Positions 15,978 to 42,835 of a DNA stretch of 64,000 bases are shown here, in pieces; the stretch's first letter is position 1; each line of letters starts with the position of its first letter. Source of the DNA: Ostreococcus lucimarinus. Lineage: Eukaryota. The notes below the pieces were generated by a model. The model saw only the letters and a program-made list of their open reading frames with translations. It was not told where the DNA came from and ran no database searches. Position numbers and translations under genes: made by a program. The DNA is taken from the NCBI GenBank assembly GCA_000092065.1, contig CP000601.1; one strand, 5' to 3'.

Positions 15978-17108
15978 CTAGGATGTCTTGGCCGATTTCG
16001 GGGTGACTTCCTCGGCGCGCGTCTCGCGAAGGAAGACGCGGTCTTCGGGCTTGTTGTTCTCTCGCTCTTCGTGCGCGTACGAAGACGCGATGGCGAGCAA
16101 GGACCCACAAGGACTGAAAGCGAGCGCTGAGATGGAGGTGGGGTAGCGGGGCGACTGAAAAAGTCGCTTTTTAGCGTCGCCATCCCAAAAATTGACGTAA
16201 CCGTCGCCGCCGCCCGTGGCGAATGTGCCGTGGACGGGATGAAACGCCACCGCGTGGACGGGATAAACAATCTCACCCACGCTCGCGTCATCGGTTTTGC
16301 GATGACACTTGAACGCATATTTTCGCTTGTCGTTCTCTTCATCGCGTATGAACTCCACCGCTACGCGTCCCTCGACGCTCGCGGCCACGAATCCATCGCC
16401 TCGGATATTTGCTGCGATGGCGCGCGTTTGAAACCGCATGCTCGAACGTCTATTTATCAACGGACGCGGCGGCGCTTCCGACGCGCGTCGTCCGTCATCA
16501 CCATCCACACCGCGCACTAAATCTCGCGTCTCGTACGCCAAAACTTGCCCATCGCTCGTCGCCACGAAAATCTTACCGTCTCTCAAATCCGCCGCGTAGC
16601 ACTTCCCAGCCGTCTTCGTCGTCGACACCGCGCGCCCTCGCTCGTCCTTCGTCAAATCCCACGCCCTAATCGTTCGATCCCAGCCAAACGTAAACAATTT
16701 CTTCGTCGCATCATCGTACTCCACCGCCGACACCGCGCCGTCGTCGTGCGCGCCGACGACGCGAAACGCGCCAGTTTTAAAATCGACGAGGCGCACCGAC
16801 CCGTCGAGGCATCCCACGCACGCCGCGTCCTCATCCGTCCCGACGAACGTCCCGCACAGCGCGGGCGCGCCCAAATCGATCGAGTTCAACGATTTCACGT
16901 CCCCGATCTCGCGCGCGCGGCACGCGTACCGCCGCGCGGTCCCGTCCCAGGACGTCACCAGGAGCGTCAACCGTCGCGCCATCCCATCGTCGTCGTCGTC
17001 GCGACCCTCTCCCGCGCTGACCGCGCAGAACCGCACCGCGCTGACGCCGTCGCCGAACGCCGCGCCTCCGGCCCCTCGCACGTCGCGACCGAGGTCTCGA
17101 TGCGCCAT
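15978..17108 (-). CDS. BUB3: WD40 mitotic checkpoint protein of the BUB3 (BUB3/RAE1) family
   Basis: YAFKCHR...VYPVHAVAFHPVHGTFATGGGDGYVNFWDGDAKKRLFQSPRYPTSISALAFS...LLAIASSY, which closely resembles plant BUB3. Confidence 0.75.
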   Translation of the reverse strand: MAHRDLGRDVRGAGGAAFGDGVSAVRFCAVSAGEGRDDDDDGMARRLTLLVTSWDGTARRYACRAREIGDVKSLNSIDLGAPALCGTFVGTDEDAACVGCLDGSVRLVDFKTGAFRVVGAHDDGAVSAVEYDDATKKLFTFGWDRTIRAWDLTKDERGRAVSTTKTAGKCYAADLRDGKIFVATSDGQVLAYETRDLVRGVDGDDGRRASEAPPRPLINRRSSMRFQTRAIAANIRGDGFVAASVEGRVAVEFIRDEENDKRKYAFKCHRKTDDASVGEIVYPVHAVAFHPVHGTFATGGGDGYVNFWDGDAKKRLFQSPRYPTSISALAFSPCGSLLAIASSYAHEERENNKPEDRVFLRETRAEEVTPKSAKTS

Positions 17109-17324
17109 CGCGCGCGCGCGTCTCGCGCGCGCACCGCGCGCGCGTCCCGACCGTCACCGCGACGACGTCGTCGTCGCCCGCGCGCGCATCGGTTTATCGC
17201 CGATCGACGACGGTCAAACGCGCGTTCGGGCGCCGTCTCGATCCATGTGCGATCGCGATGACGCGCGCATAAATAATCATCGCCGCGACCGAACGCGCAT
17301 TGCGACGCGCGCGAACGCCGTGTC

Positions 17325-20300
17325 GTGCGAGCGCGTCTCGCGCGGGCGTCGCGCGCGCACCGCATTTCGCGACGGCGGTCGATGCGGGCCCCGTCGCGCG
17401 CGCCGTGCGCGTCCGCGCGCCCGGAGGCCGGCGTCGTCGACGCCCTCGATGATCTCGCCGCCGTCGACGCCCGCGCGTGCGGCATCGGCAAGCTCACGAT
17501 CGCGCACGACGACGACGACGACGACGCGCGAGGTCTCCGCCATCGCGACCGCGGCGCGTTCGCCCTCGATTTGCGCGCGTGGTCGTTCACCGCGCGCACG
17601 CAGCCGGTCCGCGCGCTCGGGGCGTGCGCGCGAGACGCGTCCGTCGACATGCGCGTGCCGTTCAGGGACGAATACGAGCGACACAGGGCGTCGCGACCGG
17701 ACGAACGCGCGCCGCGAGGGGCGAGTTGGCGCATCCATCGAGTGCGAGGATGGCGCTTCGACCTGCGCGCGCTGTACGAGGAGGTGAAAAGACGCGGTGG
17801 CGCGGACGCGATCGATGGAAATCAAGGCTGGCGCGAGGTCGCGGAGGCGATCGGGGCGCACGGACGCGGATGCGCGGCGGGACACGCGGCGAGAGCGCTG
17901 CACGGGGCGTGGCTGGAGGCGTTCGCGCGCGACGCCAAGCGAAGAGAAGACGCGGTGAAGAGCGCGCAGTTCGACGCGGTGAAGGGAGAGATCGAACAAG
18001 ATGACGCGCTGGCGATCGATGCGCTGTGTGGGCTCGAATTTGGGGCGTCGGGCGCGCCCGAACGGCGAGTCAAGGTGGAAAATGTGCGTAATTCGTGCCA
18101 TATCTTCTTCGCGCGGGACCGGGATGACGGCGAATCGCACGCGTTCGCGGCGCGTGCGACGCGCGCGCGCGATGATGGGCGTCGCGATGACGTGCGACTG
18201 ACTTTTACGGCGCGTGTTTTCGCGACGCAGGGCCTCGATCTCGTCGCCTCGCAGCTCGCGGACGCGCCCGAGGGCGACGCCGACTGCGACGTGTGCGGCG
18301 CGAGCGGGAACGAAGACGCGATGATCCTGTGCGATGGGTGCGATCGAGGGTGCGTATACGACAATGCCACGCGAGAACGCGCGCGTGAAAATTATCTCGA
18401 TCGTTCGGACGCGCGTTCGGGGAGAGAGAGCGCTCGCGCGGCGCGCGAGGGCGCGGCGAACGCGCGCGTGGGCGACGGTTAGACGTGGGGTTTAGAGGCG
18501 CGCGGGGGAGAAGGAGCCGCGAAGGAGCGACGAGACTGACGAATGATGCGCGCGTAGGTCACATATGTACTGCTTAACGCCGAAGATGACTGAAGTGCCG
18601 AGTGGAGAGTGGTTTTGTGGACGATGCGAAGAGATTGACGCGGAGGTGGAGCGATTGAGCGCGGATGAAGGGACGCAGTTTACGCTCGGCGATTTCAACG
18701 AGGCGTGCATAGAATTTGATACGGCGTTCTTTGGCGAGGACGCCAAGCGAACTGGGATCGATATGCAGGTGATTGAGGAGTGTTTCTGGCGAATGGTTGA
18801 AGATGCGAGCTCGGTGGATGATGTTTGCGAGGTCAAATGCGGCACGGCGATTGACACGACAAAGTACGGAAGCGGGTTCCCGAGACACGGCGAAGCGCTT
18901 CAGGTAAAGATTGACGGCGTGAGCCCGGAATCTATCAAGCGCTGGTCAGAGTCGAAATGGAATCTCAACAACGTCGCGCGCGCGAGTGGGGAAAAGTCGT
19001 CGCTACTGGGCGCGTTGAAGGATGACGTGGCGGGCGTGACGACGCCATTCTTAGAAGTCGGAAGCACGTTTAGTTCCACGACTTGGCGTCGAGAAGAGCA
19101 TAACATGTACAGTATCACTTACAATCACTGGGGTGCCGCGAAACTGTGGTACTGCGTGCCGGCGAGTGCAGCGGACAAGTTGGAAGAATGCTTCCAGAAG
19201 GTGATGCCCGACGTCTACGAGGCGCACGTCAACGATTTGGGAAGCGTCTTTACGATGCTCTCGCCGAGCTTCTTGATGAGCGCGGGAGTGCCCGTGCACA
19301 CGTTGGAGCAATTCCCAGGAGAATACGTGGTGACGTATCCCGGGGCGTACTACGCGTCGTTCAACTGTGGATTGAACTGCACGGAGAGCGTCAACTTTGT
19401 GCCCGCTGACTGGCTCCCAGAGGGCTCGGCGAGCGTGGAGAGAAACCGATCGTACGCCAAGCGTTCATTGTTTAGTCACGACGAGTTGGTTTGCAGAGTA
19501 GCAAACAATCCTAGTTCGAGCATAGCGCCGCACTTGTGGCCCGAGATTGCGCGCTTGTACGCTGAAGAGGCAAACGGTCGCGCCGAGCTTTTCGCGTCTG
19601 GCGTGACGCGCAGCGCGCAAATGACGTCAGCAGACGACGACGACGACGACGATGGCTGCGAAAAGCCTCGTAAAGTACGATCTAGGTTTGACGATGCATC
19701 GAACTCTGGATCCGATGAGTGCGTTGTTTGTCGACACATTTTGTACTCGTCTGGCGTCGGGTGCTCGTGCGACGAGACGCGCAAGGCGTGCTTGCGACAC
19801 GTCAACGACTTGTGCAAATGTGCGATGTCGAAGAAGACGATGTTTTACAGAGAAACAGTGGCTGATTTAGAAAGTCTGGTGAAGAAGACGGAGAAGGCGC
19901 TTTCTCAGAAGGAACTAGCCAGCTTAAAATCCAAGCACAGCGACTTGGACTCAGTCACAGTGAACAAGAATCTCGTCAAGAAGGCTCAGGCTTGGGTGAA
20001 ACGAGTGGGCGAAGAGCTCGTCAAACCACCTTTGCCGCCGCTGGACAAGATGAGAAATTTACTCGCTGCGGGTGAAGAGTTTATTTGGGGTGGTGCTGAT
20101 ATGAAGGCGGCTCGAGAAGCGTACACTCGCGTGACGAACGCCGTCGCGTGGCAGACGAGTCTTGTGGCGCTGAAGCAAAGGCTTGGATCCAGTGCTGGTG
20201 CCGAGGCCGCGCACGATGACGCTGGTGAAGCGCGATTGAGATTGAACAGACTAAAAGAGCTCCTTGACAACCCACCGGTACCGATGCCTAAGGCTGATAC

Positions 20301-23300
20301 TCAACCTTTCCGCGATTTGCTCGCGGCGGGCTTGAAATTGGAGGAACGCATCAAGGCGGCTCTCGCCGAGGTACCGAATCCATCTCCTCGCGCTTGTACG
20401 ACGCTTCAAACTGAAGCGAATAAGTTTGGTGTGGAAGTCCCTTCATATAAAAAGCTGAAGGACGTCATCGTTAGAGCAGGCGCGTGGTCCACGAAGGTGC
20501 GCGGCGCGCTTCCAGGACGACGACAACTCCCGCCGCGCGAGGAACTAGCGAATGCTCGAGAGATCGAGGCGTTATACGAAGAGGCGCATGGATTACCCGT
20601 TCAGCAGAGCGAACTCTTGACTTTGCGCAAATCTTTAGAAGAGTTGAATTTTTGGCGCGCAAAGTCTGAGTCGCTGTTCGTCGCCAAGGTTGACGTGGAA
20701 GAAGCCGAGGCGCTTCTCAAGGAGGGCATGGCGTTGTCAACAAAACTCGACGAGGTCGACAGACTAGCCGATCAAATCAAAGCTGTCAAAGTGTGGGCCG
20801 ATCATGCTCGAGCGAGTGATTATCCGGGAGCAAGAGTGACGGATTTGCACATGCTTCTCGTCGAGGGTGAAAAGTTTAGCGTGCGAGTGGACGAAGTCGA
20901 GTGGTTGCGAAACCGTATCGTCGTCCGGGAGCTGGCAGAGAAATTGAAGGACATGGTTTCATCGAAGAAATATCCGCTCGCCGAAGTCGAAGCGGCCGTG
21001 CGGGCGGGTAACGAGTTCCTCGACTCCGAAGATAAAGAGGTTGCCCCAGATGAAGAAGCGCTGCTGGCGCAGTGCGAGAGCCACATCAACGCGGCGAAGA
21101 AGTGGAACGAGCGCGCGGCGGTGATGCTCAAATCTCTCGATAGTAAGGACCGACCGTCACTCGAAGACGCCGCGTCGCTCATCCGCGAAGGAAGCTCGAT
21201 TCCAATCTTTCTGAATGGATTCGACGTGCTTTCAGAAGCGGTCAATGTAGCCAAGTCTTGGTTGGATCGTGCACAACCTTGTTTGAAGGGAAAGCAGCTC
21301 ACTCGTCGCGGTGTGTCAAATCCGATTCCGCCGCTTTCCGAGGCGCAAGAGCTCATGAAAGAGTCTTCGAACTTGAAATTGTTTGTCAAGGAAGTTGAAG
21401 CTTTGGAAGAACGCGTCGAAGCCGCAGAAGAGTGGGACGTGGACGCGAAGGACGCCATCGAGCGCTGGCGAGAAGACGGCGCCGAGGTGACGTTGACCGA
21501 GCTTGAACTTTCGCACGAAGACTTTGGATTAGAATTACCAGCCATGGAGACAGTTCGCATTCGTTTAAAGTCGCTCAAGTGGGAAGAACGCGTCGCTAAG
21601 ATCATTGCACCCAAGGCGAAGCTCGTCGAGGACACCGTTTTGGACGAGCTCAGGGAAGAAATCGACGTGCTTCAAGACTTGAAAGAGGATCTTGTCGCTG
21701 AAATCATGAAACGGTACACGATTGTGGACGAATGGCGCAAGAAAGCGGATCGTTTGCTCGATCCTCCTCTCCTTGAAGACGGTCGATTGGCTCCGAGTGC
21801 ATCACCGGAGGAAATAGACGCCCTCATCGCCGAAGGCAAGGCACTTCCCGCTGACGTCTCGAAGGTAGAAGACCTCGAGGCGTCGTTGGCGGATCACGCA
21901 CAGTGGGTCGACACCGTTCGTAAGTGCTTGAACAGTGTCGCTGAAGGTCGATCTCGCCCTTCGATTGACGAATTATACGATCTTCTAGCGGAGGTGGAAG
22001 ATTTGACCTTCAAGTGCTCAGAGAGACAAGCGCTCACAAATGCGTGCAACGCCGCCACGGCGTGGACGGAGAGGCTCAACGCGTTGCTCTGGGCAAACGA
22101 TCAGGGTGAAGTCAAACAAGAAAAAACGCTTATCGAAATGTTGAGCAATGTTCTTGATTCCATCAAAGCTGGTGTGGAAGACATCACCGGGACTGGCGAA
22201 CCGCCGGAGACGGAGGAGGGTTAGTTCTGCCTTTGTCGACAAGCTGGAGGAATTCAAATGGTTGGATGTGATGATTGCGGTGACTGGTATCACTTAAAAT
22301 GTATCAATGTGACGCCTACTATGGCAAAGACGATGCACAATTACATCTGTCCGCCATGCATCGCGAAGAGTGGCAAGGCGAGCGCACTCTCGTTGGATAC
22401 GTATCGCTCGGTGCATCGCACCAATCGCCCAAACGTCATGCTTTTGCGAGAACTCCTCGGTGAAGCGCAGCGATTTCCTGGAGAAGTGCCAGAAGAAGCC
22501 GTGTTGAATCAAGTCATCAATACTCACGACGCGTGGCGATTGGAAGTACGAAAGACTTTGCATAGAAAGAGTATGAAGGAAGCACACGACAACGCCATCA
22601 GTCAAGCTTCGAAGATTGCCCAAGAAGCAGCGATGAGAGAATCTGAGGAACGCACACGACGAATCGCCGAAGCGTCGCTCGCGGCGACTGCAGAGAACCC
22701 CAATCCTCCAGCTTCTCTCACGCCATTACAGCAAGTCATGCTGATGGGTCAAGCTGTCACGTTCGCCGCAACGCAGCGCACGCACGCGTTGAACATTTCG
22801 CCGTGTTCGCAGGAGATTTCAGATGTCGTCACAAAGCAGCTCGGGCAACTTCAACAGCTCGCCATGCAACTCGCGATGTGCCAAGCTCAAATTCACATGG
22901 CTCCAGTTCGGTCTAGGCCCCACATCCTCCACGTCTTGATGATGCAGCAACAGCATCTAAAGATGACAAACGAGCACGAGGAAGAGCTGGCAAATGTTGG
23001 CGCTAGCAACTGGCTCATGGAAGCGACTCTGCAACTATCTGGAATGTCTGGCATGATGCCGCCGCCGACGGCGCAAGACACCGGCAAAGAACCTTCAACA
23101 TCCACGGGTCATGGTAGTCCAAGCGATATGTCTGCTCAGTTGAAGACGAACGAACCGATGATGGTTCCGCAGCAGTTCATGTTGCAACCGGCCATGCCAT
23201 CGCTTGTCGGCGACGCGTCTGGAATGCCCAAGCAAGAGATGGATTACACGTATGACATTCCTCGAAAAGATAATGTCGATCCAGCGCTGCAAGTGTACGC

Positions 23301-24087
23301 GGGCATGAAGGGTGCTCTGGCGATGGAGCTGGAACCTGTTGAGGAGACGCTCGCGTTGATGCGCGAAGTGTGCGGTCCGGCGTGGAGAGAACAAGCCACG
23401 CGGCTCATGACTGGTGCGCCGTTCCCGAGGTTGATCAAGCTTCACGAGCTCAAGGAATCTGCCATGGCTGCTGGTCTTTGCCCTGGTGCCGGCATTGATC
23501 CTTTGGCCGATCGCGCGCACGCGTTGGAGGTTGCTGGACAAATCTGGCTCGAACGCGCCGCCGCCGTCGTGCAAGACAAAACGATTCCTATCGAGGCGGC
23601 GCAGTTGCTGCTTCAAGAGGGTCGATCTTTGCCTTTATACTTGAAGGAGGAGCTCGAGGAGTTGGGAGAGCGATGCGAACTGTATTGCGTTTGCCGAAGC
23701 GCGTACGACGCTCTCAGGCCGATGATTTGCTGCGATCGATGCGATGGTTGGTTTCATTACGAGTGCATCGGCATGCAGTCGCCGGCGCCGGGCGAGGAAG
23801 ACGAAAACGCCGAAAACGTCAAGTTTGCCTGCCCAGAGTGCTGCGCGGCGCAAGGTATTCCGTACGTTCCGTTCCGTCCAGCGCCGAAGGACACGGACAA
23901 AGCGCCGGAGCGAGCCGCGCCTCCGCCGGCTGAAGAAGCTCCGGAGCCGCCAAAGACGGAAGAAGAAGCGAAGCCGCCCGCTAAACCAGAACCGGAAGTC
24001 GCGGACAACAAGAAGAAACGAAAAACGGTGGAGCCGACTCCGCCTGCTAATAAAAGTACCTCTAGTCGCAGCAGAAGACGAAAGTAG
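17325..24087 (+). CDS. KDM5/JARID1-type histone H3K4 demethylase (ARID, PHD1, JmjC, C5HC2 ZnF, PLU-1-like, PHD2, PHD3). It has one intron (18359..18557) and one in-frame TAG at 22222-22224
   Basis: ARID (WRFDLRALYEEVKRRGG...GWREV). PHD1 is split by the intron (CDVCG...LCDGCDRG | SHMYCLTPKMTEVPSGEWFCGRC). JmjC (HWGAAKLWYCVP...YVVTYPGAYYASFNCG). C5HC2 finger. C-terminal PHDs FCLCRQ...MVGCDDCGDWYHLKC...YICPPC and LYCVCR...MICCDRCDGWFHYEC...FACPEC. The three ORFs 17325.., 18565.. and 22258.. belong to a single gene. Confidence 0.8.
18359..18557 (+). other. Spliceosomal intron (199 nt, phase 2) inside PHD1 of the KDM5 gene
   Basis: GG|GTGCGTATAC ... GAGACTGACGAA ... GCGCGTAG|G. Splicing reconstitutes the PHD finger CDGCDRG-SHMYC across the frame change. 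Confidence 0.8.
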
Positions 24088-24135
24088 TTCTCTAGATTTA
24101 CAACATTTGACACAATAAACAACAACTTCAATAAT

Positions 24136-25362
24136 TCAACCGTCCAGGTGCTCGTCCCATCCCAGGTCTCGTTTCGGCTTGCGCCTACCGACCAACTTGG
24201 CCGCGTCCAGTTCGGTCAACAATTCAATTTCGTCGAGTGTTTCCTCGCTCACATCGATGTCGTCCGTCACCGCGAGCTTTTGACCCTTTCTATGACGCTC
24301 GACGAGTTCTTCGAGATATCCTTGCTTTGCGTAGTTCGGTATCAACCTAGACATGTACACGCCGCGCAAAATACGTTTTTCTTCCTCAGTCAAATCGCCG
24401 TGAAACCCTCGGCGGTTGATCCGGTCCGTCACGGCGTGCGACATCACGAGCGCGGCGGCGACGGAAATGTTCAAAGACTCGGTGAAGCCAAACATCGGAA
24501 TGTACACGGCGCCATCCCGCAGCGCTCGCGCCTCGTCCGAAACCCCCTCGCGCTCGTTCCCAAACACCACCGCCGTGGGCACGGTCCAATCGTAATGCGA
24601 CAGCGGCTGCGCGCCGTCAAACTCAGTCGTAAGAACGCGGTATCCTTTCGCCTTCGCGACTCTGAGCGCGCGTTCCGACGTCTCAAACTGCTCCACGTGT
24701 TGCCACTTCAGCGCCCCTCCCGACGTCCTCCCGCTCGCCTTGAACGACAGCCCCTTCGAGCTCACGATCGACGCGCACCCGATCCCCAGCGCCTCCGTCG
24801 TCCGACACACCGCCAAGATATTGCCGACGTCGTAGACGCCCTCTAGAATCGGCAGCAACGAAAAACTTCTATGCTCCAAAACGTTTTCCAGCCGCATGCG
24901 TCGCTCTTCCCCGACCATCGCCGTCGCGAGCGCCACCATCGTCTCCGTCTCGCACGTCGCCCTCGCGAACGCGAATCCATCGCCGTACGGGAATCTTTCC
25001 CTCTCGTCCTCGTTCGCGCGCGTCCCCAAATCTTCCCGCCGCGCCCGCACCAGCCCGTGAAACTCCAGCGCGTCCGGCGCCCACGCGCGCTGCCTTCGGT
25101 GCGCCTTCGCGCTCTTCGTCGCCACCGCGCCCGTGCGCGCCACCGCGCGCGTCGGTCGCGGCGTCGTGCGCTTCACGACGACGTCGTGCGGGCCGGCGTG
25201 CGCGCGCGACCCCGGTTCCGACACCGATTCCGATTCCGCCGCGTCGTCGTCGCGCGCGCGTCGCGTCGCCGGTCGAGCGACGCGCGCGGCGCGCTCGCGA
25301 GCGTCGCGTCGATTCGCGTCGATTCGCGATCCCGCGCCCGCGATCGCGCGCGTCGACGCCAT
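24136..25362 (-). CDS. SpoU/TrmH-family (SPOUT) RNA 2'-O-methyltransferase
   Basis: VVFGNEREGVS and IPMFGFTESLNISVAAAL SPOUT motifs. Arg-rich presequence. Confidence 0.8.
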   Translation of the reverse strand: MASTRAIAGAGSRIDANRRDARERAARVARPATRRARDDDAAESESVSEPGSRAHAGPHDVVVKRTTPRPTRAVARTGAVATKSAKAHRRQRAWAPDALEFHGLVRARREDLGTRANEDERERFPYGDGFAFARATCETETMVALATAMVGEERRMRLENVLEHRSFSLLPILEGVYDVGNILAVCRTTEALGIGCASIVSSKGLSFKASGRTSGGALKWQHVEQFETSERALRVAKAKGYRVLTTEFDGAQPLSHYDWTVPTAVVFGNEREGVSDEARALRDGAVYIPMFGFTESLNISVAAALVMSHAVTDRINRRGFHGDLTEEEKRILRGVYMSRLIPNYAKQGYLEELVERHRKGQKLAVTDDIDVSEETLDEIELLTELDAAKLVGRRKPKRDLGWDEHLDG

Positions 25363-25520
25363 TCGAATCGCCGCGCGACGCGAAGTGTCGACATCGCGTC
25401 GCGCGGCGATTCGAATCGCGTCGCGCTCGAACGGCGTCGCGTCCTCGCGACGCGCGCGCGATGACGCGCGAACGTCGCGCGCGCGCCGCGCGGTCGCGGG
25501 GCGCGCGCGCGCGCGAGACG

Positions 25521-27032
25521 ATGGCGGCGGTGACGCTCGGGACGTTTTTGGTGTTGGGACGCGCGGGCGCGTTTCGCGGCGCGAGCGCGCGGCGCGCGCC
25601 GCTACAGGCGATGGACGCGGGCGCGGGAAGCGCGGGAGGGACGGCGTCGCGGCCGGCGCGGCGATGGATGACGCACCTGCTGCGCGATCACCCGGAGATG
25701 CGATGCACGCAGATTCCGAGCAAGCCGGTGATCGTCGGCGGCGACGGCGGCGGCGCGGGAAAGCCGCTGATGGAATTCCTGAGGGATTCGAACGCGGTGA
25801 CGTTCGGACCGACGGATAAGGATGGGAACAGCGACGCGGAGCGGTTGAGCGGGTTGGATGACATGGTGGTGGACGTCATGGCGTTTTCGAAGCGGTTGCT
25901 GTACGAACCGGATGATTTGCCGATGGATTTGCAAGCGGATTTAGCGAAACATTTGTGCGATATGTTTGCGAGACAGGAGAAGTGGTTGCACCCGGGATTG
26001 ACGATGAATGGGATACAACACGATCAAGAGGTCGGGCGGTGGGGATGGAAGGATCCGTTGGCGATGTATTTGGTGCCGATTTGGAGAGACGTGTACGGGC
26101 CGTCGGTGACGTACGTGCACTTGGTGCGGGATCCGCGGACGCTGCCGCTCGGGAATTTGCACGACAAGGAGCGGGATTTACAAAAGGCGTACTTTGGTCA
26201 AGAGCGATGGGAGCAGTTGACGGCAAAATTTGAATCCGAGTGGGCGCATCTCTCCCAGCACCAGTCGATGACGAGCGTGAAGAAGGACGACGTGATTGAT
26301 TTATTGCGCACGACGGCGTACTGGACGTCCATCAACTTTGAGCTCGGGGCGCTCATCAAGGGCCCGCTCAAGAACTACGCCACGGTGCTCCGGGCGGAGG
26401 ATTTGGTGCAACCGGACATGGATCACTTCCGACGCGACGCCACCGGGAAAAAACCGGAAAAGTACCAAGCCGCGCAAAAAGTCATGCAAGAGCTCACGAC
26501 GCTCCTCAAGCTCCCGGCGAAACTTTCCAACACGCTGGGAAGCCACGAACACATGAAGCAAAACCTCCGACGGTTCACGATCCACCGCGAAAAGTTCGTC
26601 TACCGCACCGACTCCCCCATCATCGAAGTCCAAACCCGCATCGCCGAGAAGACGTTGGAACTCTTCGGCTACTCCGCCGACGCCGCGCTCTTCGTCTCGC
26701 GGCACCCGTCGTCGAGCGAGCCCCACGGCCATCGTCTCACCCCCGAGGGCGAGTACATGCACGAGGAGCACAGGTATACTCCCGACGATTTCGAGCCCAC
26801 GATCGAACCCGCGTCGGAGGGCGATCTTCCCGGCATCACCAACCACGTCCTCGGCGCTCAGCTCAAGTACACCGACCGCGTCGAGCTCGAGCGCGCCAAG
26901 ACGCGCGCGCCCGACACGGAGCAATCTCGCGCCGTCGAGGCCCAGCTCATGGAGGCTAAGAAGAAGACCTTTTTGCTCGAAACCACCAAAATCGACGGCA
27001 AGTCTCTCAAGGACGTCATCGACCATCTGTGA
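25521..27032 (+). CDS. Hypothetical type-II membrane protein, sulfotransferase-like
   Basis: N-terminal signal anchor MAAVTLGTFLVLG. WGWKDPLAMYLVPIW ... VHLVRDPR resembles the 5'PSB/3'PB regions of sulfotransferases. Only weak homology is visible. Confidence 0.4.
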   Translation: MAAVTLGTFLVLGRAGAFRGASARRAPLQAMDAGAGSAGGTASRPARRWMTHLLRDHPEMRCTQIPSKPVIVGGDGGGAGKPLMEFLRDSNAVTFGPTDKDGNSDAERLSGLDDMVVDVMAFSKRLLYEPDDLPMDLQADLAKHLCDMFARQEKWLHPGLTMNGIQHDQEVGRWGWKDPLAMYLVPIWRDVYGPSVTYVHLVRDPRTLPLGNLHDKERDLQKAYFGQERWEQLTAKFESEWAHLSQHQSMTSVKKDDVIDLLRTTAYWTSINFELGALIKGPLKNYATVLRAEDLVQPDMDHFRRDATGKKPEKYQAAQKVMQELTTLLKLPAKLSNTLGSHEHMKQNLRRFTIHREKFVYRTDSPIIEVQTRIAEKTLELFGYSADAALFVSRHPSSSEPHGHRLTPEGEYMHEEHRYTPDDFEPTIEPASEGDLPGITNHVLGAQLKYTDRVELERAKTRAPDTEQSRAVEAQLMEAKKKTFLLETTKIDGKSLKDVIDHL

Positions 27033-27135
27033 GGTGTAATTAAAACCAAACGCGCCTCGCGCGTCCCGCCGCGTCGCGAACGACCGTTCAAACCCGCGCG
27101 CTGGATGTGCGTCACATCGCGCCCGGTCGTCCGTC

Positions 27136-29355
27136 ATGGACGCCCCCGAGCTCGCGATCGCGCTGGACGAGCTCGCCATCTTACCTCCCGCGTCGCTCGC
27201 GCACGTTCCCACCCTGCGCGCCGCGCACGCCGCGCTCCGGTCGTCCCAGTGTCCCGGCGTCGCCGCCGCGCCCGCGCGCGACGTCGCCGACGCGCCCGAA
27301 CAGCTCGACGTCGACCGCCTCCACGACGTCTTCGACGCGTGCGCGCGCGCGGGGTGCGCGTCGGTGATCGCGCACTACGTCGACGAAGTGTGCCTGAGCG
27401 ACGATGGAAGGTTCTCGAGCGACGACGGCGCGGAGGCGTACGCGCGGGACGGGGCGTGCGCGAGCGCGTGGGCGCGAAGAGCGACGAGACGAGCGAGCGA
27501 AAGAGTGCACGCGAGCGCGGGAAGACCGCGAGAGGCGAGAGTGGCGGCGGTGGAGGACGCGATGCGAACGCTGGAGGCGGCGCGAAGGACGGTGGAGGCG
27601 CTGGGAGGATGGAGAGAGGACGGGGACGAGGCGAACGCGGAGCGAGAGGCGCTGCGAGCGACGGCGGATGAAGTGGTGACGAGACAGCTGCAGGCGGAGG
27701 CGCTGCTGTGGGCGGCGAGAGAGGGATTGAGTGATGCGGTGGGGGCGCGATACGGTGGACCGGCGGCGTGGGCGGGGGCGGTGCAACGGCGAAGGAGCGC
27801 GGCGGCGAACGGGGACGCGCGATTCGGAGGCGCAAACGCGACGACGTTTTTAGATGATTTACTCGCGGGGGTGGGCGAGCATCAGCCAGCGTATCCGTTC
27901 AAGACGGTGACGGATGCGGCGAAGTGCGTGTTCGTGGACGGGAGCGCGTCGCCGGCGGCGCTCGTGGCGAAGAAGTGTTTGTTTCTGTACTTTTTGCTCG
28001 ATTCCGGCTTGCCGCACGACGGGTCGCCGATGGAGTACGCGCGACAAGCGCGTATTCATCCGAGGTTGTTTCAAGAAACGCGCGCAGCGGTATTGCTCGA
28101 TGACTCAGAGAACGAGGCGTCGCTCGACGAGGCGTGCGCGCTCTTACCTCGCGTCGCGCATCCGTTGTTGCCGGTGAAGTTTATCGCGAGTTTAGCTCGA
28201 CGCGGTCGCGCGACGACGGCGTTAATGGTGGCGCGCGCGCGCGCGCCTTCGTCCTCGGACACCGAGGCCATAGGTTTAGATGTTTCAATCCGTCTCGCGT
28301 GCGGTCTCATCGCCGAGGCGTTTATCGCCGTCAGAGACGCGTTCAAGACGTTTCCCGAATTGCGCGGCGATTCAAAATCAGGCGCATACCTCGTGAGTCT
28401 GTTGTTAGATCACGGCGTCGAGAAGCTTTGCCTGGACAAGGTCCTCGAGCTTCCGTTTTACGGCGAGATGGAGAAGTTACTGCTCGACCTCTTGTGGGCG
28501 CGACGCTCGGAAGTTCCCGTGGAGACTGGAATTTTGTACTTGCTCAACCGAGGACGCGCGCTCGAGGCGTCCGAGTTGTTCTCCAAAGCCAGAAGTGAAG
28601 GGCGTTTAGAAGACGAGCACGCCGCGAAACTCGTGAAGCGAATGCAGGAGAGTTTGTCACGCTTGCCGGTGCCGCAAAAAGTACTCGTGGCGGAAGCCGC
28701 GAGGCAAAGAGGCGACGACGACGCCTTGTTGGCTCGCTCGCTCGTCGTGCGGGACGCATCGGAGGACGCTTTGGCCACCACCGCGAGCGCACTGTTGATC
28801 GATGAAGTCAAGGAATTCGAGGCCGTGTTGAAGAGCGAAGACGCCGCCGTCGGCATCTTGCCGTTTCTCAAACCACCCATCGAACTTGCGCGCGAGCGGC
28901 GAGAGCCGTCGATCGACAGCGCGACGGCGGCGTTGGCCACGACGATGTTGGTAAGCCCGGGCAAACCTTTGACGTTCGTTCGACCGCACGACGCGAAGGC
29001 CGATCGTCGCAGCGCGCTCGAACGCGGTCCGTCGTCCTCACCCGCTGGCATCAAATCTCTGATGACTCCGTCGGGCGCGCGAACTTCGAGCTACACGGTT
29101 CCCGAACCGACCATGTACGCCTCACCGTTCGGTGCGCGTCGTCGACCATCACTGGACGAGCCCACCGTCGCACCGCCGCCGAAGGATCACACCGCGTCTT
29201 TGCTGTTCGGCGCGCGTCCGACGCCGCTTCCCGGCGGAGACTTCCCATCCTTCCTCTCGCCCGCGCCCAAGCGCGCCGCGCGTGCATCGACGCGCGACGA
29301 ACGCGGCGATCCCTCCGACTCTCCTCGGCGTCGAAGCTCACGACTCGCGAAATAA
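27136..29355 (+). CDS. Hypothetical large protein (possible ELYS-like nucleoporin region); function unknown
   Basis: Continuous 739-aa ORF. The middle part (KCLFLYFLLDSGLPHD...LLLDHGVEKLCLD) is non-repetitive and coding-like. C-terminal Pro/Ser/Arg-rich tail. The ELYS assignment is a guess. Confidence 0.3.
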   Translation: MDAPELAIALDELAILPPASLAHVPTLRAAHAALRSSQCPGVAAAPARDVADAPEQLDVDRLHDVFDACARAGCASVIAHYVDEVCLSDDGRFSSDDGAEAYARDGACASAWARRATRRASERVHASAGRPREARVAAVEDAMRTLEAARRTVEALGGWREDGDEANAEREALRATADEVVTRQLQAEALLWAAREGLSDAVGARYGGPAAWAGAVQRRRSAAANGDARFGGANATTFLDDLLAGVGEHQPAYPFKTVTDAAKCVFVDGSASPAALVAKKCLFLYFLLDSGLPHDGSPMEYARQARIHPRLFQETRAAVLLDDSENEASLDEACALLPRVAHPLLPVKFIASLARRGRATTALMVARARAPSSSDTEAIGLDVSIRLACGLIAEAFIAVRDAFKTFPELRGDSKSGAYLVSLLLDHGVEKLCLDKVLELPFYGEMEKLLLDLLWARRSEVPVETGILYLLNRGRALEASELFSKARSEGRLEDEHAAKLVKRMQESLSRLPVPQKVLVAEAARQRGDDDALLARSLVVRDASEDALATTASALLIDEVKEFEAVLKSEDAAVGILPFLKPPIELARERREPSIDSATAALATTMLVSPGKPLTFVRPHDAKADRRSALERGPSSSPAGIKSLMTPSGARTSSYTVPEPTMYASPFGARRRPSLDEPTVAPPPKDHTASLLFGARPTPLPGGDFPSFLSPAPKRAARASTRDERGDPSDSPRRRSSRLAK

Positions 29356-41220: not shown

Positions 41221-42525
41221 TTAGAATTCCATCCCAGACTGTTGCTCCGCCTTGGCTTGACGCGTCTTTGCGGTGAGCCGCTCGATGTTTTCCCTCGCGC
41301 ACGCGTTCCAGAACGTGTCGTTAAAAGTTTTGATCGCCCCGTCTAAGGTTTGCGCACCGGAATCCAGATCGACGACGGTGGGCACGAGTTCCGGATTGAA
41401 GGAATCCGCGGTGGCGGGATCCATGGGCACGCACACACGCCCAGTTTTTGGGTGAACGCAAAACGGACCCTTCAACAAGTGATTCATGTGTCTAGACACC
41501 TCGATATCGACTCGAGGGTAGATGTGCCAGAGGATTATCTTTTCGAGCGCACCGGTAAGCTTGTAATTATTTTTCTTCAAAGAGTCTTGCACGCGGCGCT
41601 CGATGACACCCCAGCGGTCGACCGAGTTGAGCGAACTCGTCGCAAACTCCGACGCGAGATCCTCTCTAATGTTTTCGTCGGGAATCAGATTGAGGAGTTG
41701 CTCGAGCTTGGTTTTGTCCTCGAGAATTCGCTGCGTGGGCAAGTACGACTCGATCCAATATTGTTTCAAGACGCCGTCGTACGCGCGCTTCACCGAAGGG
41801 TGCATCGGCGTCGACGACAACACGCGGCGCCCCTGACCCTCGCCCTTGACGACGGCGAAATACTCGGCAACCGCAGAGCGAGCTTCGTCGCTCAACTTTC
41901 TCGCGCGCTCATCGCTGATCCAGCAGTGAATACCGCGACGACCGGAATAGACCCACAACAAGTGCTTGAAACCGAAATCCTCGCGCAAGCCGACGTCGAG
42001 CACCTTGAGCGCCACCGTCATCAACGGCCAGCACTTTCCACAGATCCCAGCCTCCTTGCAGCACGTCCGCACGTCGTCGTAATCCGTCATATCGATATCA
42101 AAAACCAACTCCCGCTCCTCCGGTTTTAACTCCACCGTGTGCCTGTCGGACGGTCTGCGGTTACAAATCGGCCCGAATTCGATGCGCGCCGGCTTTTTCC
42201 GCTCCACGTTTGTCTTAAAATCCTTCGCGTCCACGAAACTCTGATACCGCGCAAAAATCTCTCCCCCGCCCTCTTCTTGTTCCTTATCCAGCACGAAACA
42301 AAACTCCCGCCGGCTCGGGTACGTCTTCTCCGCCCTCGCGTGTCGTTCGTCGTTTCCGTGCGCCAACCACTTGAACAACAGATCCGCCGGGTAAAATTGT
42401 TTATAATACCTATACATCAAGCTCTTCACCCGCGCCTTCCCCACGTTCCCCGTGTTGAGCGCGACGTTTTCCTTCTCCCCATCCTCCGTCTTCAATCGCT
42501 TCGTCTCCGGTTCGACCGTCGCCAT
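41221..42525 (-). CDS. PRI1: DNA primase small (catalytic) subunit PRI1/p48
   Basis: RELVFDIDMTDYDDVRTCC (catalytic DxD), FKHLLWVYSGRRGIHCWISD, HPKTGRVCVPMD. The ORF is open upstream to 42822; I prefer the Met at 42525 (MATVEPETKRLK). Confidence 0.85.
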   Translation of the reverse strand: MATVEPETKRLKTEDGEKENVALNTGNVGKARVKSLMYRYYKQFYPADLLFKWLAHGNDERHARAEKTYPSRREFCFVLDKEQEEGGGEIFARYQSFVDAKDFKTNVERKKPARIEFGPICNRRPSDRHTVELKPEERELVFDIDMTDYDDVRTCCKEAGICGKCWPLMTVALKVLDVGLREDFGFKHLLWVYSGRRGIHCWISDERARKLSDEARSAVAEYFAVVKGEGQGRRVLSSTPMHPSVKRAYDGVLKQYWIESYLPTQRILEDKTKLEQLLNLIPDENIREDLASEFATSSLNSVDRWGVIERRVQDSLKKNNYKLTGALEKIILWHIYPRVDIEVSRHMNHLLKGPFCVHPKTGRVCVPMDPATADSFNPELVPTVVDLDSGAQTLDGAIKTFNDTFWNACARENIERLTAKTRQAKAEQQSGMEF

Positions 42526-42778
42526 CCTTTGTCGATCGTCACCGCGTCGATCGTCACCGCGTCGGCGCGTCTCCCGCGTCGTCTCTCGCGTCGTCTCGCG
42601 TTTGTTCTCGCGTTCGTTCGCGCGTCCGACGCCTCGAAAGCTTCGCCGCGCGCGCGCGTCTCCCGCGTCGCGTCGCGTCGCGCCGCGCGTCGCGCAGTCG
42701 CGCGGTCGTCGCTGGAATTTTAAATTTTTCGCGCCACCTGTCGCGGCGTTTGAAAATCCTCCCGTGTGTGTCTTCGCA

Positions 42779-42835
42779 CTGTTTACCCATACGTGTCGGA
42801 AATCTTGTGACTGTTTACCCATACGTGTCGGAAAT
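42779..42835. repeat. Two copies of a 25-bp direct repeat CTGTTTACCCATACGTGTCGGAAAT in the divergent primase/USP promoter
   Basis: Copies at 42779-42803 and 42811-42835, 7 bp apart. The second copy ends immediately 5' of the USP ATG (..GGAAATG). Confidence 0.85.

Follow-up and report, generated by a model that had tools for sequence, protein, structure and literature searches.

The window analysed here, a stretch of 64,000 nucleotides (nt) from contig CP000601.1 of Ostreococcus lucimarinus strain CCE9901 (assembly GCA_000092065.1), carries a gene for a KDM5-type protein whose reading frame is broken by a single in-frame TAG at position 22222. In all conspecific and congeneric sequences compared, this codon, number 1496 of the spliced coding sequence (CDS), is CAG or CAA, and the one-base difference that makes it a stop is private to CCE9901. 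The TAG is probably a real nonsense allele of this strain, arisen by a single CAG-to-TAG transition, and because of this stop the open reading frame (ORF) behind it has been mistaken for a distinct gene in the public annotation.

Continuity of the KDM5-type gene across the stop codon

The TAG occupies 22222-22224 (reading GAG GAG GGT TAG TTC TGC CTT TGT CGA CAA) and lies between two ORFs in the same frame, one of 1219 amino acids (aa; 18565..22224) and one of 609 aa (22258..24087). An earlier reading of this DNA, made from its letters and ORF translations (the sequence-only reading), had pointed to this arrangement, and both the context GGT TAG TTC and the shared frame are as it described them. 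The stop and the first Met of the 609-aa ORF are separated by 11 codons (FCLCRQAGGIQ), and the continuous translation has no second internal stop. In public databases the 609-aa ORF has an exact match in XP_001421121.1 / XP_001422833.1, entries named 'predicted protein' or 'PHD-type domain-containing protein'; several other ORFs of the window, its neighbours among them, likewise match CCE9901 proteins exactly. Joining the three exons listed in Table 1 gives a spliced model of 2116 codons, the sole defect of which is the stop at codon 1496, and residues 1-2110 of this model are collinear, from one end to the other, with residues 1-2124 of O. tauri XP_022840230.1 (72% identity). In both introns of the model the donor is GTGCGT, the branch GACTGAC and the acceptor YAG, with the acceptor of exon 3 (GACTGACG...GCGCGTAG) ending at 18557.

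Comparison with conspecific DNA identified the base concerned. Sixteen environmental contigs from Kiel, Tara Oceans and other metagenomes (L001, L004-L008 and L014-L023), which are ~99.8-99.9% identical to the window, all have C at 22222 and hence CAG (16/16); the first of them, L001, is 99.886% identical to the window over 17499-25395 (7.9 kb), with CAG in place of TAG. A single CAG-carrying protein haplotype (P0064) is by itself indexed in 57 blocks of the protein collection. Beyond the species, five other Ostreococcus clades carry CAG (O. tauri) or CAA at codon 1496. Exon 3 is covered by an uninterrupted ORF in the 16 conspecific contigs and the five clades; counted from the first ATG of this exon in genomic contigs, these ORFs are 1839-1841 aa long, except in two clades with 1809-1814 aa. 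The sequence-only reading had proposed such a comparison of KDM5 orthologues at the TAG codon, and it returned CAG or CAA and no stop.

Protein-level searches gave the same picture. The full-length search recovered one ORF cluster ~99.7% identical to the window and five at 73-75%, one of which includes O. tauri, and all of these clusters read ...GEPPETEEGQFCLCRQAGG... across the site. Through ...ETEEGQFCLCRQ... there is no break in XP_022840230.1, the curated O. tauri protein of 2129 aa, or in a transcript-derived MMETSP ORF of 2096 aa from a sister clade, and the motif EEGQFCLCRQ is found in O. tauri, in the MMETSP ORF and in a relative outside the genus with 39% identity. In the 27 codons around the site the clades have nearly the same amino acids and differ freely at third positions, which argues that the region around the TAG is coding sequence under purifying selection and not an intron.

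This pattern bears directly on the proposal that a weak spliceosomal intron removes the TAG from the transcript, for instance 22174..22224 (GTGGAA...TAG) or 22220..22249 (GTTAGT...AG). There is a GT in phase 0 at 22174, for which the TAG itself could act as acceptor, and GTTAGT at 22220 resembles a donor; the sequence-only reading had noted the GTGGAA hexamer, placing it at 22171 when it in fact begins at 22174. Yet the interval that would be excised encodes VEDITGTGEPPETEEGQ, which is conserved at the amino-acid level in six clades with synonymous third-position changes, and it is retained both in the MMETSP transcript-derived ORF and in the curated O. tauri model. Excision of 22220..22249 would moreover remove the first two zinc ligands of the second PHD finger (PHD2). 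The motifs GTGCGY, GTRMG, RACTGAC and CTRAC are all absent from 22050-22400, which thus has no donor or branch of the type used by this genome, unlike the two real introns of the gene (GTGCGT, GACTGAC). An intron at this place is hardly credible.

The 11 codons behind the stop are an integral part of PHD2. In the translation that starts at 22225, the Pfam PHD profile is matched from position 1 to 47 of 47 by residues 2-45, and since the match runs end to end once these codons are included, the finger begins with the Cys of FCLC, just behind the TAG. The alignment with the solved PHD fingers of Spp1 and CFP1 likewise starts just before the first Cys, placing '(V/A)YCIC' onto 'QFCLC'. The earlier suggestion that these codons supply PHD cysteines is thus confirmed, and the further claim that the 609-aa ORF cannot be an independent gene is upheld by collinear orthologues that are continuous across its start. 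Both C-terminal PHD fingers are encoded contiguously with the rest of the protein in all relatives, and are here split off from it by the TAG. Together, these comparisons support a single KDM5-type gene interrupted by a stop; the downstream ORF is a part of it and not a separate gene.

Origin of the TAG codon

On the reading we favour, a C-to-T change at 22222 in CCE9901 would have turned codon 1496 from CAG (Gln) into TAG within exon 3, the long one. Since the O. lucimarinus genome ordinarily uses TAG as a terminator, translation is expected to stop at 22222, giving a predicted product shortened to 1495 aa (ARID, PHD1, JmjC, C5HC2 and PLU-1) instead of 2116 aa, possibly from a destabilised mRNA. 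The last 621 residues would be lost, both C-terminal PHD fingers of the H3K4me3-reader type included, and the 609-aa ORF would be the still-intact remainder of the reading frame.

Additional support for a true allele comes from SRR1179203, a different set of reads, whose Logan assembly has the TAG form again, on an 18,886-bp contig. This contig encodes both the exact 1219-aa and the exact 609-aa product, and the part of it that was compared is 100% identical to the window over 16258-27283 (11,026 bp). Since wild conspecifics differ from the window at about one site per kb, SRR1179203 is almost certainly CCE9901 itself, and the presence of the TAG in an assembly of separate reads argues against a base-call error. 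The CCE9901 reference was a finished Sanger genome, and accessions in the range of SRR1179203 belong to later short-read runs. From these data we infer a true allele and not an error of the reference.

Several points nevertheless weigh against this interpretation and in favour of the CCE9901 reference being wrong at this base, through the base call or in the consensus, in which case the strain would truly have CAG and an intact gene of 2116 aa. The change is of one base only, and TAG is seen solely in CCE9901-derived sequence, the 16 wild conspecific contigs all having CAG. The downstream ORF is fully intact over its 609 codons, which is equally expected after a sequencing error, and the truncated product is itself deduced from the DNA. 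If SRR1179203, a run of unverified provenance, shares its DNA or data with the reference, the agreement could reflect an error carried over from one to the other or a mutation of a sub-line. Nor does the assembly of CCE9901 offer a second opinion. Between 884 and 58524, two GenBank/RefSeq accessions belong to each annotated gene of this strain that was tested (one in the ABO99262-99420 and one in the ABP01186-01284 series; EF-1alpha has three protein accessions), indicating that a segment of at least 58 kb, and probably the whole window, is present twice in the assembly, one copy lying on a chromosome of 528,469 bp with ABO99414.1 and the other on the chromosome with ABP01192.1. A recently duplicated small chromosome is reportedly part of the O. 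lucimarinus assembly. An identical 609-aa model is found at both copies, so that both appear to carry the stop and the assembly would be without an intact copy; because identical duplicates share reads, however, the second copy is no independent confirmation of the TAG. Against an error stands, besides the recurrence of the same TAG in the SRR1179203 contig, the observation that the reference has seven other private single-nucleotide polymorphisms (SNPs) in 17.5 kb, so that private differences are normal for CCE9901. We therefore regard an error in the reference as unlikely, though it is the strongest of the competing explanations.

The same SNPs provide a view of the age of a nonsense allele. 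The eight strain-private SNPs, the TAG included, are divided between the 6.7-kb gene (four) and the flanking 10.9 kb (four), and the TAG is thus one of eight at an ordinary density. Downstream of the stop there are no more than one or two private substitutions; given these few changes and no sign of long-standing decay, the mutation looks recent. The same counts give no support to an old pseudogene under relaxed constraint.

We also considered programmed stop-codon readthrough, in which the TAG would be decoded often enough to yield full-length protein, for instance as Gln by a near-cognate tRNA. The frame is open for 620 codons past the stop, PHD2 starts right behind it, and near-cognate decoding of UAG commonly inserts Gln, here the ancestral residue. 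The stop is, however, missing from the 16 conspecific contigs and from all six other lineages (five congeneric clades and one more distant relative), which argues against programmed readthrough, as its signal would be conserved. The context UAG-UUC-UGC fits none of the readthrough motifs known to us (UAG-CAR-YYA, UGA-CGG/CUA and UAG-G plus a hairpin), and no RNA structure was predicted in the 100 nt from 22222 to 22321, which fold no better than shuffled sequence (minimum free energy of -19.6 kcal/mol versus a shuffle mean of -20.85; z = 0.42). Furthermore, TAG terminates three other genes in the window, and the window holds no tRNA gene, so that no suppressor tRNA is encoded nearby. Programmed readthrough is accordingly very improbable, and any background near-cognate readthrough restoring Gln would be incidental.

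A change of the genetic code in this strain, with TAG reassigned to Gln, would also agree with the ancestral residue, and such reassignment exists in some other eukaryotes. It is contradicted by the use of TAG to close the KDM5-like, BUB3-like and 902-aa genes at positions shared with conspecific environmental contigs, the ORFs of which were called with the standard stop set, and by the CAG at codon 1496 of conspecifics that are 99.9% identical; reassignment is effectively refuted. Among the four causes listed in the sequence-only reading, the nonsense allele and the base error thus stay in play, while readthrough and a weak intron did not find support.

Domain content, JmjC iron ligands and consequences of a truncation

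The spliced protein has the domains of the KDM5 family (Table 1). Besides those tabulated, Pfam identified ARID at residues 120-181 (E=1.6e-6) and the first PHD finger, PHD1, at residues 253-297 (E=1.5e-12) of the spliced protein, and KDM5_C-hel in the upstream ORF (E=7.3e-7). JmjN gave no Pfam match at E<=1 in the spliced N-terminal 571 aa; by eye, 17382-17740 holds only a remnant resembling the KDM5 JmjN/ARID linker (FALDLRAWSFTARTQ). The best PDB matches of the JmjC region are human KDM5C, KDM5A and KDM5B (E=3.6e-45 to 7e-44). The closest solved fingers are Spp1, CFP1, BPTF, ING4 and TAF3 for PHD2, and DIDO1, Pps, PHF2, BPTF and PHF8 for the third finger, PHD3. Spp1, CFP1, BPTF, ING4, TAF3, DIDO1, PHF2, PHF8 and the PHD3 fingers of KDM5A and KDM5B, which also count among the closest solved relatives, are H3K4me3 readers.

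Table 1. Coordinates of the KDM5-like gene, its domains and a neighbouring ORF (positions in the window).
Feature	Position	Strand	Description
Exon 1	17382..18083	+	Start Met through ARID, ends ...RVKVEN; GTGCGT donor at 18084
Exon 2	18231..18349	+	First part of PHD1 (CDVCGASGNEDAMILCDGCDRG); ...GACTGAC...CAG acceptor before, GTGCGT donor at 18350
Exon 3	18558..24087	+	Rest of PHD1, JmjC, C5HC2, PLU-1, PHD2, PHD3; TAG at 22222 its only interruption
JmjC domain	19051..19398	+	Pfam E=2.8e-31, residues 163-278 of the 1219-aa ORF
C5HC2 zinc finger	19720..19878	+	Pfam zf-C5HC2 E=5.6e-14, residues 386-438 of the 1219-aa ORF
PLU-1-like helical domain, best-matching stretch	21103..22086	+	Pfam PLU-1 E=1.3e-61, residues 847-1174
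Premature TAG	22222..22224	+	Codon 1496 of the spliced CDS; C-to-T transition at 22222 versus CAG (Gln)
PHD2 (CLCRQAGGIQMVGCDDCGDWYHLKC...YICPPC)	22228..22359	+	First two zinc ligands upstream of the annotated Met at 22258
609-aa ORF	22258..24087	+	Stand-alone 'predicted protein' at NCBI; in fact the C-terminal third of the KDM5-like protein
PHD3 (YCVCRSAYDALRPMICCDRCDGWFHYEC...FACPEC)	23686..23841	+	Pfam PHD, residues 477-528 of the 609-aa ORF
Normal gene terminator	24085..24087	+	Also TAG; identical end in all environmental ORFs
ORF	25461..27032		Exact match XP_001422834.1

Alignment of the JmjC domain to human KDM5A, KDM5B and KDM5C (including 5ceh_A) revealed substitutions in both Fe(II)-ligand motifs. 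The first motif, WHIEDH, is replaced by WRREEH (~19090-19110), with His changed to Arg and Glu kept, and the distal motif, AYHSGFN, is replaced by AYYASFN (~19350-19370), with His changed to Tyr; the corresponding Fe(II)-binding HxE...H triad of KDM5A is H483, E485 and H571. All six Ostreococcus clades have both His substitutions, as do O. tauri XP_022840230.1 and the MMETSP ORF, whereas the next relatives (P0007-P0009, 39-41% identity) keep WHFEDH with SYHGGFN or AYHAGFN. As two of the three Fe(II) ligands of JmjC are substituted, the Ostreococcus 'demethylase' is probably non-catalytic, that is, a genus-wide pseudo-demethylase which belongs to the KDM5 family by architecture and descent and is probably not an active H3K4me2/3 demethylase. 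The label 'catalytic half' that the sequence-only reading had given to the upstream ORF accordingly needs qualification, while its assignment of the gene to the KDM5 type stands. If JmjC is inactive, the PHD reader fingers cut off by the TAG may account for a large part of what the protein does. The loss of two JmjC iron ligands throughout the genus may in fact be biologically more interesting than the TAG.

For curation, the consequence is that XP_001421121.1 / XP_001422833.1 do not correspond to a gene, and that the CCE9901 models ought to be joined into one and marked as disrupted. Otherwise, comparative work that relies on the CCE9901 proteome as it stands will count a shortened KDM5 and, beside it, an orphan 'PHD protein'. 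Should the TAG be a true allele, a widely used reference strain is without two PHD fingers of the H3K4me3-reader type, which could colour its epigenomic results. As a tentative suggestion, about which we are more doubtful than convinced, CCE9901 could naturally lack the reader module of the one KDM5-like protein it has, as a knock-out in both duplicated copies of what would already be a genus-wide pseudo-demethylase. Were this so, the strain would be a ready-made separation-of-function mutant, and its nucleosome, methylation and RNA data may not represent wild O. lucimarinus; in a minor variant of the suggestion, near-cognate insertion of Gln at the UAG would restore a trickle of wild-type protein.

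Surroundings of the gene and comparison with known systems

Two length polymorphisms were seen within the gene, both in frame: a poly-Asp tract at 19633 has seven Asp in the window and eight in 16/16 environmental contigs (a 3-nt difference), and CTC at 20527-20529 is missing from two contigs (L018 and L019). The base composition of the gene changes in a step, the GC content being 0.72 in exons 1-2 (0.78 at third codon positions, GC3) versus 0.55 in exon 3 (GC3 ~0.6); the whole window, taken in 2-kb blocks, is a mosaic in which the GC content ranges from 0.53 to 0.68.

Downstream of the gene, on the minus strand, an ORF of 408 aa for a SpoU/TrmL-like methyltransferase (24136-25362) is conserved at full length in many environmental contigs. 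NCBI holds for CCE9901 only a 216-aa 'predicted protein, partial' (ABO99272.1 / ABP01274.1), which is likely another annotation shortfall. Farther along the window, also on the minus strand, a 533-aa ORF starting with ATG (41221-42822) is without an exact match in a collection of 15 billion proteins, unlike seven other long ORFs of the window, and may be interrupted by an intron or be no real gene. Pairs of ORFs of equal length (467 and 533 aa) raised the possibility of a duplication within the window, which was rejected, as the members of the pairs have no similarity at the DNA or protein level.

The event at 22222 is best compared with an ordinary nonsense allele in a reference strain that leaves a 'split gene' in the annotation. 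It shares with such cases the single transition, the restriction to one strain, the intact downstream frame and the calling of two genes, and nothing about it differs mechanistically. The cause is mundane; what is unusual is the position of the locus in a segment that the assembly contains twice, both copies of which appear to carry the stop. With UAG readthrough of the tobacco mosaic virus replicase type, and with leaky eukaryotic stops, the site has in common an in-frame UAG followed by a long, functional-looking open extension; unlike in those systems, the stop is here unconserved and is accompanied neither by a readthrough context nor by a predicted downstream structure.

As for the protein, its order of domains (ARID, PHD1, JmjC, C5HC2, PLU-1, PHD2, PHD3) is that of the KDM5/JARID1 proteins (Lid, RBR-2, plant JMJ17), and the top named homologues of the Ostreococcus protein are plant JMJ17/KDM5. 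It departs from them in the replacement of two Fe(II) ligands and in having no detectable JmjN, and the form encoded in CCE9901 would additionally be truncated before PHD2. In its substituted metal-binding residues within a JmjC fold it resembles JARID2, the catalytically inactive JARID member, and like it would presumably act as a scaffold or reader. JARID2 chains were matched at E ~6e-24; the Ostreococcus protein is far closer to KDM5 (157 versus 88 bits) and, unlike JARID2, retains both a PLU-1 domain of the KDM5 type and the PHD fingers at the C-terminus.

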